Assembly: GCF_000981785.2 (NCBI RefSeq)
Contig: NZ_CP011304.1
Location: forward strand, 2,760,001-2,792,000
Direction: 5' to 3'
DNA: 32,000 bases
Source: Microcystis aeruginosa NIES-2549
GTDB taxonomy: Bacteria > Cyanobacteriota > Cyanobacteriia > Cyanobacteriales > Microcystaceae
Shown piece by piece: positions 4,638 through 8,823 of this stretch; positions within the stretch are counted from its first letter, which is position 1; each line of letters begins with the position of its first letter. Under the pieces are notes generated by a model, which was not told the DNA's origin, ran no database searches, and was given only the letters and a program-made list of their open reading frames with translations. The position numbers were made by a program, and so were the translations under genes.

Positions 4638-8823
<4,186 letters not shown>

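Follow-up and report, generated by a model that had tools for sequence, protein, structure and literature searches.

In the Cmr2 subunit of Pyrococcus furiosus, the DNase dyad is formed by H13 and D14, and the double substitution H13A/D14A abolishes the DNase, with immunity persisting through cyclic oligoadenylates (cOA) and Csx1 (PMC7192623). An analogous HD-dead mutant, H14A/D15A, has been engineered in the Cas10 of Staphylococcus epidermidis (PMC10808066), and HD-dead forms of Cas10 are routinely used in work on staphylococci and Thermus (PMC10808066; 10.1101/2023.09.03.556089). Among 1113 type III loci, a recognisable HD domain was found in only 39%, and the cyclase in 92% (PMC11229360). 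Furthermore, a 2023 preprint, with reference to a systematic survey of Cas10, puts the share of III-B Cas10 proteins without the HD domain at more than half and adds that the domain is inactivated in many others (10.1101/2023.09.03.556089). Natural III-B Cas10 proteins without a working HD site, such as Thermus thermophilus Cmr2, rely on the cyclase.

Within the genus Microcystis, the closest described locus is 'Cluster 4' of M. aeruginosa FACHB-524, a III-B system of Cas10, Cmr3, Cmr4, Cmr5 and a fused Cmr1-6, accompanied by Csx1, Uma2 and a CARF protein, with 21 spacers. Together with Cas6 and Csx1/CARF, it protected Escherichia coli against T4, and Microcystis strains can possess three type III-B loci with CARF proteins (PMC11855584).

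The locus described here lies in a window, i.e., the whole 32,000-nucleotide stretch of the M. aeruginosa NIES-2549 chromosome that was analyzed (Table 1). It carries the same set of subunits as Cluster 4, including the Cmr6/Cmr1 fusion, and a 36-nt repeat of the same family, CTCTCTACTCGCTAGAGAAATTAATTGAATGGAAAC. It differs in its accessory genes, since the window has neither CARF nor Csx1 and its Uma2 is a pseudogene, and in its 5 spacers. Analogous to the P. furiosus and S. epidermidis mutants, its Cas10 is changed at the same two positions, with the domain kept and the cyclase motif intact; however, those are laboratory alanine mutants, whereas the window carries a natural Gln-Ala that belongs to a population polymorphism. 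In contrast to P. furiosus with its Csx1, no partner effector is visible within the window. The protein also resembles the natural III-B Cas10 proteins without a working HD site, although many of these lack the whole domain, whereas that of the window is complete, with the dyad and a few neighbors changed.

Table 1. Coordinates of the features discussed, in positions of the window.
Feature	Position	Strand	Evidence
cmr6-cmr1 fusion, 647 aa	766..2709	-	TIGR01898 Cmr6, TIGR01894 Cmr1, PADLOC
cmr5, small subunit	2773..3204	-	PADLOC Cmr5 1.8e-61
Degraded Uma2-family (PF05685) remnant between cmr4 and cmr5	3219..3485	-	tblastn
cmr4, 259 aa, full length	3495..4274	-	TIGR02580 121.6 bits (cutoff 87)
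cmr3, 375 aa, full length	4709..5836	-	PF09700 4e-65
cas10/cmr2, 1004 aa, type III-B large subunit	5809..8823	-	TIGR02577, PF12469, PF22335, PADLOC, AF2 model
GGDD cyclase motif, residues 760-763, intact	6535..6546	-	sequence
N-terminal HD-type domain, residues 1-215, retained	8179..8823	-	profile alignment to 9l7c_B
Codons 15-16, CAA GCT (Gln-Ala), aligned with the catalytic His-Asp dyad	8776..8781	-	translation, homologue and profile alignment
Short CRISPR array, 6 repeats of 36-37 nt, 5 spacers	9288..9686	+	sequence; repeat match to FACHB-524 'Cluster 4'
Window-specific insertion of ~4.5 kb between the array and the O-methyltransferase/PGM flank	9722..14199	.	synteny comparison

The window Cas10 and its HD-type domain

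The product of the large open reading frame, which begins with GTG and has GAGG 6 nt upstream, is a type III-B Cas10/Cmr2 by family models, GGDD motif, fold and operon alike. The protein scores 171 bits against TIGR02577 (cutoff 79.4), 128 bits against PF12469 Cmr2_N (cutoff 25) and 61 bits against PF22335 Cas10-Cmr2_palm2 (cutoff 27), and PADLOC assigns it to Cas10b at 6e-296. In its palm/cyclase region, YGGGDD occupies residues 758-763, and GDGDGM is intact at residues 667-672. The AF2 model (pLDDT 83, pTM 0.87) finds as its best PDB matches the full-length Cmr2 proteins of Archaeoglobus fulgidus (9l7c_B, TM 0.66/0.68) and P. furiosus (4w8y_A, TM 0.60/0.70), with E values down to 4e-28.

No Pfam model matches residues 1-215. 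A profile of this N-terminal domain can be aligned over its full length with residues 28-240 of 9l7c_B (E=6e-7), and the conserved segment at its end matches LPADTRFPDHAIWTH of P. furiosus Cmr2 in a profile alignment. The full-length profile and that of the 215 residues alone agree in placing the family motif 'WGLLHDPvlkal' on 'IRAFFHDPPDKSF' of 9l7c_B, where the counterpart of the motif reads FFHDPPDKSF, so that the dyad does not map elsewhere in the domain. The HMM alignment to P. furiosus Cmr2 (4w8y) leaves its first 150 residues uncovered, and the mapping is based on the A. fulgidus alignment together with the literature on P. furiosus H13/D14; a literature search by the PDB code 9L7C returned no paper. 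The initial annotation had placed the dyad of Cmr2/Cas10 at about residues 13-16, with H13/D14 of P. furiosus as the reference, which the published work bears out (PMC7192623), and had read Gln-Ala in its stead, which translation and homologues confirm. By alignment, Q15 and A16 thus sit on the catalytic HD dyad.

The best 120 homologue clusters are all cyanobacterial Cmr2 proteins with 52-91% identity to that of the window, and the motif WGLLHDP is near-invariant across them. At the two positions that read Gln-Ala in the window, 116 of the 120 carry His-Asp, three carry HN and one carries HE; Gln-Ala occurs in none of them. Among the 48 loci of GTDB species representatives carrying the motif, 46 have HD, with RD and NE found once each. 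Additionally, a search of 50%-identity representatives showed the HD to be missing in about 10 of the 58 relatives whose N-terminus could be aligned. The window protein has the domain homology expected of an active HD protein and all of the other His and Asp residues, namely H23, D63, D70, H93, H109, D179 and H185; what it lacks is the His-Asp dyad near residue 15. The downstream segment of the HD domain, which had been described as still recognizable, is indeed intact and includes D63, S69, D70 and R71, all invariant in the family.

A separate dyad loss is seen in the Cmr2 of Symploca sp. SIO1C2 (L031:6001-9006), in which NE has arisen independently in place of HD and His185 of the SIWSH motif is changed to Tyr, with GGDD intact.

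Dyad alleles within Microcystis

The window Cmr2 belongs to a cluster of 610 Cmr2 proteins from Microcystis, and 16 cmr2 alleles of the genus that include the 5' end were collected. The dyad codons are CAC GAT in 13 of the 16, and it is from this sequence that the CAA GCT of the window is removed by one transversion per codon, in agreement with the earlier remark that each codon lies one nucleotide from a His or Asp codon. The two further exceptions are L002, from the metagenome-assembled genome M015S2, with CGA GAT (Arg-Asp), and L064, a metagenome contig, with CGA AAT (Arg-Asn). All three non-HD alleles carry TTG (Leu19), and all 13 HD-bearing alleles carry TTC (Phe19). The window allele belongs to a minor Microcystis haplotype with three different dead dyads, QA, RD and RN. 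Leu19 and Asp31 were considered as possible derived markers of decay; Leu19 is, however, the cyanobacterial consensus, although Phe19 is present in the nearest outgroup, P0002, so that either state may be ancestral. The dyad loss is recent enough for HD and non-HD alleles to occur side by side in one genus. On the most economical history that we can infer, the first hit fell on the His (CAC to CAA, later CGA) and would have left the Asp free to change, to Ala in the window and to Asn in L064.

Between L058, which has HD, and its close relative L002, which has RD, the first 645 nt differ at 10 positions, 8 of which lie inside nt 37-66. In this interval, L058 carries the states of the major allele (binomial P=9e-10). 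The clustering of the differences shows that what sets the HD allele apart from the non-HD one is a short recombination tract.

These alleles bear directly on the reading in which both substitutions arose as errors of sequencing or assembly, with His-Asp encoded by the true gene. In favor of such an error is that the exact window protein is known from one assembly; an exact-protein lookup found no second assembly with it. A metagenome scan for CRA GMT alleles (QD, QA, RD and RA) gave no match, a broader metagenome pattern recovered 11 loci, the RN allele included, and the best match among GTDB species representatives is 91% identical. However, an error would have to comprise two separate transversions in adjacent codons, outside any homopolymer, and the dyad is also absent from independent assemblies of the related haplotype that have Leu19 in common, with RD in L002 and RN in L064. 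Moreover, the window allele differs from every other allele at about 6-10% of nucleotides, as expected of a diverged allele and not of a mis-call on the common one. Because of the three dyad states in independent assemblies, the two transversions outside a homopolymer and this divergence, we regard the Gln-Ala substitution as real and sequencing error as very unlikely, to the point of being scarcely credible. The comparison with other assemblies of the species and the chance of sequencing errors had both been raised in the initial annotation. An engineered origin was likewise considered and rejected, given that the protein is 8-12% diverged from every other allele and that QA would be unusual as a laboratory substitution.

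Selection and erosion at the cmr locus

By the Nei-Gojobori method, applied to the window, L064, L002 and L058, dN/dS is 0.13-0.19 for residues 1-215 and 0.17-0.34 for the rest of cmr2. Both ranges are similar to those of HD-intact alleles, with dS up to about 0.2. The low values indicate that the N-terminal domain is still constrained; the HD-type domain and the whole of Cas10 are under purifying selection.

Of the positions with a conservation of 90% or more in the family (82 in the N-terminal domain and 311 in the rest), the window protein breaks 6 of the 82 (H15, D16, G29, N31, P48 and G75) against a family median of 1, and 11 of the 311 against a median of 5. It thereby stands among the top ~10% of homologues for conserved-site substitutions, for the HD domain and the remainder of Cas10 alike. 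The changes R463L, D520N, M724I and R937Q affect sites that are 99-100% conserved and lie outside the HD domain, and the cyclase or the complex could thus be impaired as well. Other dyad variants also carry an excess of changes at conserved HD-domain positions, i.e., 7 in P0105 (HE), 10 in P0108, 7 in P0115 and 4 in P0032 (the last three HN); in these four, as in L031 (NE), GGDD and GDGDGM are intact. Closer to the window, L002 (6001-9039, RD) has GSDN in place of GGDD, and L058, with cmr2 on the reverse strand, has GGDN together with a nonsense codon, GAA to TAA, at position 949.

All five cmr open reading frames of the window are full length. The fusion protein is hit by TIGR01898 (Cmr6) over residues 144-291 and by TIGR01894 (Cmr1) over residues 340-414. 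Cmr4, Cmr5 and Cmr6/1 show no excess of conserved-site substitutions beyond other Microcystis; in cmr3, five additional substitutions of this kind are common to the window, L002 and L058.

Two further observations concern the neighboring subunits. At residues 18-30 of Cmr4, the catalytic D26 of P. furiosus (GVVDQPIQRE) aligns on Val24 of GNLV-GIARE; QEGNL[LV]GIARE is present in most of the cyanobacterial loci examined, HD-intact ones included, and a more distant group of loci has GNILEIARE instead. Judging from this alignment, the cyanobacterial Cmr4 family may be without the canonical RNase Asp or may employ another residue, and RNA cleavage by the Cmr4 of the window's family is uncertain. 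Additionally, a spacer of about 435 nt separates cmr3 from cmr4 (4275-4708); it is also found in L002, compared with a 6-nt gap in L005, and holds two 32-nt direct repeats, GATCCCCCCTGCCCCC(A/C)TTATTAAGGGGGGTG, each containing a hairpin. It may represent a small inserted element.

In several strains, the locus occupies the same chromosomal site, flanked on one side by an O-methyltransferase/phosphoglucomutase pair and on the other by a LapA-domain gene. A 417-aa CARF+WYL gene lies directly upstream of cmr2 in all ten loci of a group, designated group A (L001, L003, L005, L029, L056, L057, L062, L063, L065 and L066), every one of them HD-intact. Its product (e.g., L005:4630-5883) matches PADLOC WYL/Csx1 at 1.4e-49 and the Pfam WCX domain. 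The arrays of group A hold 6 to more than 39 repeats in the 7 of 10 loci whose upstream region is covered. The gene is absent beside cmr2 in the window, L002, L064, L058 and L004, and in these five loci, 2-6 repeats lie at a distance of about 0.5 kb from cmr2. The dyad is missing in 3 of the 5 loci without CARF+WYL compared with 0 of the 10 in group A (Fisher p=0.022, uncorrected for phylogeny), a value that rests on about 15 phylogenetically non-independent loci with possible duplicate deposits (L003 and L056 are contigs of equal length).

The accessory genes and the array of the window are reduced in other respects. The Uma2 remnant is recognizable by tblastn at 57% identity over residues 1-86 only, with a stop 9 codons later; in all other Microcystis loci examined, an intact Uma2 of 187 aa stands between cmr4 and cmr5. 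All six repeats of the array differ from one another, spacers 3 and 4 are identical (9470-9507 and 9544-9581), and spacer 5 (9619-9649, 31 nt) contains a 26-nt perfect palindrome, TAGGGTTAATTCATGAATTAACCCTA. The adjoining insertion encodes a PEP-CTERM protein, IS200/IS605 tnpA and tnpB and an LprI-domain protein, and nothing corresponds to it in the syntenic loci of Microcystis. The 32-kb window contains neither a CARF nor a SAVED gene, nor any other known effector. Thus, the dyad substitution singled out in the initial annotation stands, but not as an isolated change: the locus and its allele lineage are eroded more widely, in the outputs of Cas10 and in accessory genes.

Elsewhere in the window, the IS200/IS605 element spans 11006-12747, with a Y1 transposase gene (tnpA) on the minus strand and tnpB, of the RNA-guided nuclease family, on the plus strand. 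A restriction-modification cluster (18989-20089 and 24535-28752) encodes an HSDR_N-domain protein, a C5 cytosine methylase, a Bpu10I-like endonuclease and an Eco57I-like N6 methylase. Intergenic tandem repeats of heptanucleotides occur at 17191-17335, 28970-28994, 29330-29365 and 29581-29667, with the units AGGGTGT, TGCCTAT, CTGATCA, TAATCAG and TAACTGA (12 copies); such repeats are typical of cyanobacterial short tandem repeats.

Functional readings of the dyad loss

We consider it probable that the window encodes a folded HD-domain Cmr2 that lost its dyad by natural point mutation, with the cyclase as its sole possible remaining output and relaxed selection on the outputs of Cas10. According to this reading, CAC GAT would have become CAA GCT by natural point mutations in an N-terminal HD-type domain that stays full length and folded, and the target-RNA-activated ssDNase of the Cmr complex would be lost. 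Any remaining immune output would be the synthesis of cyclic oligoadenylates, acting on effectors encoded elsewhere in the genome, and the N-terminal domain would persist in a structural capacity within the complex. Since engineered H/D-to-A mutants of the P. furiosus, S. epidermidis and T. thermophilus Cas10 proteins lose the activity, the window complex is likely to be without RNA-activated ssDNase, with cyclase signaling still possible. The linked losses at the locus are most readily understood if selection on the outputs of Cas10 was relaxed in a sub-lineage that also lost the CARF+WYL gene and most of the array.

The same losses could be read as the decay of the entire locus into a non-functional remnant, in which dyad loss would be one of several inactivating changes and immunity would be gone. 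The missing CARF+WYL gene, the Uma2 pseudogene, the degenerate array with its duplicated and palindromic spacers, and the IS200/IS605-bearing insertion beside it are all consistent with such a fate, as are the rank of the window among the most substituted homologues and the clear degradation of the sister alleles L002 (RD with GSDN) and L058 (GGDN with a nonsense codon). However, the five cmr reading frames and GGDD of the window are intact, dN/dS is far under 1 (0.15-0.34 at dS of about 0.2), and Cmr4, Cmr5 and Cmr6/1 are no more substituted at conserved positions than those of other Microcystis. On the strength of the intact reading frames, the intact GGDD and the low dN/dS, a locus that is probably still useful is favored over one heading for full decay, which is unlikely on these sequence data. 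Residual nuclease activity through other residues of the domain (e.g., H23, D63, D70, H93, D179 and H185) is suggested by the retention of all these candidates and by purifying selection on the domain. It is nevertheless highly improbable, as substitution of the dyad by alanine abolishes the DNase in every Cas10 tested (PMC7192623; PMC10808066; 10.1101/2023.09.03.556089), and the occurrence of QA, RD and RN at one site in sister alleles is a pattern of drift and not of a new catalytic solution; the excess of changes that the window and other dyad variants show at conserved HD-domain positions also argues against it.

A further reading, which we hold to be decidedly doubtful, is that the nuclease-dead haplotype is a maintained polymorphism, with DNase-active and DNase-dead alleles at one site, a 30-nt tract swapped between them and a non-catalytic role for the domain. 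The tract containing the dyad would then be exchanged by gene conversion, as between L058 and L002, and the dead allele would be favored where the DNase is costly, e.g., through self- or prophage-targeting spacers where mobile elements abound in the genome. Within the complex, the conserved N-terminal domain would still have a function other than catalysis.

That type III-B systems commonly lose the HD site or have it inactivated is already on record; the window is another natural case, and its allele leaves the current understanding of type III systems unchanged. What it adds is a within-genus allele series at one chromosomal site, in which an intact allele is accompanied by three different dead dyads. 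The series gives a population-level view of the loss of the Cas10 DNase, including a 30-nt recombination tract that switches between HD and non-HD, and it links the dyad changes with the loss of CARF+WYL, the shrinkage of the array and, in sister alleles, the loss of the cyclase motif. It also provides natural alleles for biochemical comparison. For the annotation of defense in Microcystis, the presence of a type III-B system does not equal DNase competence.
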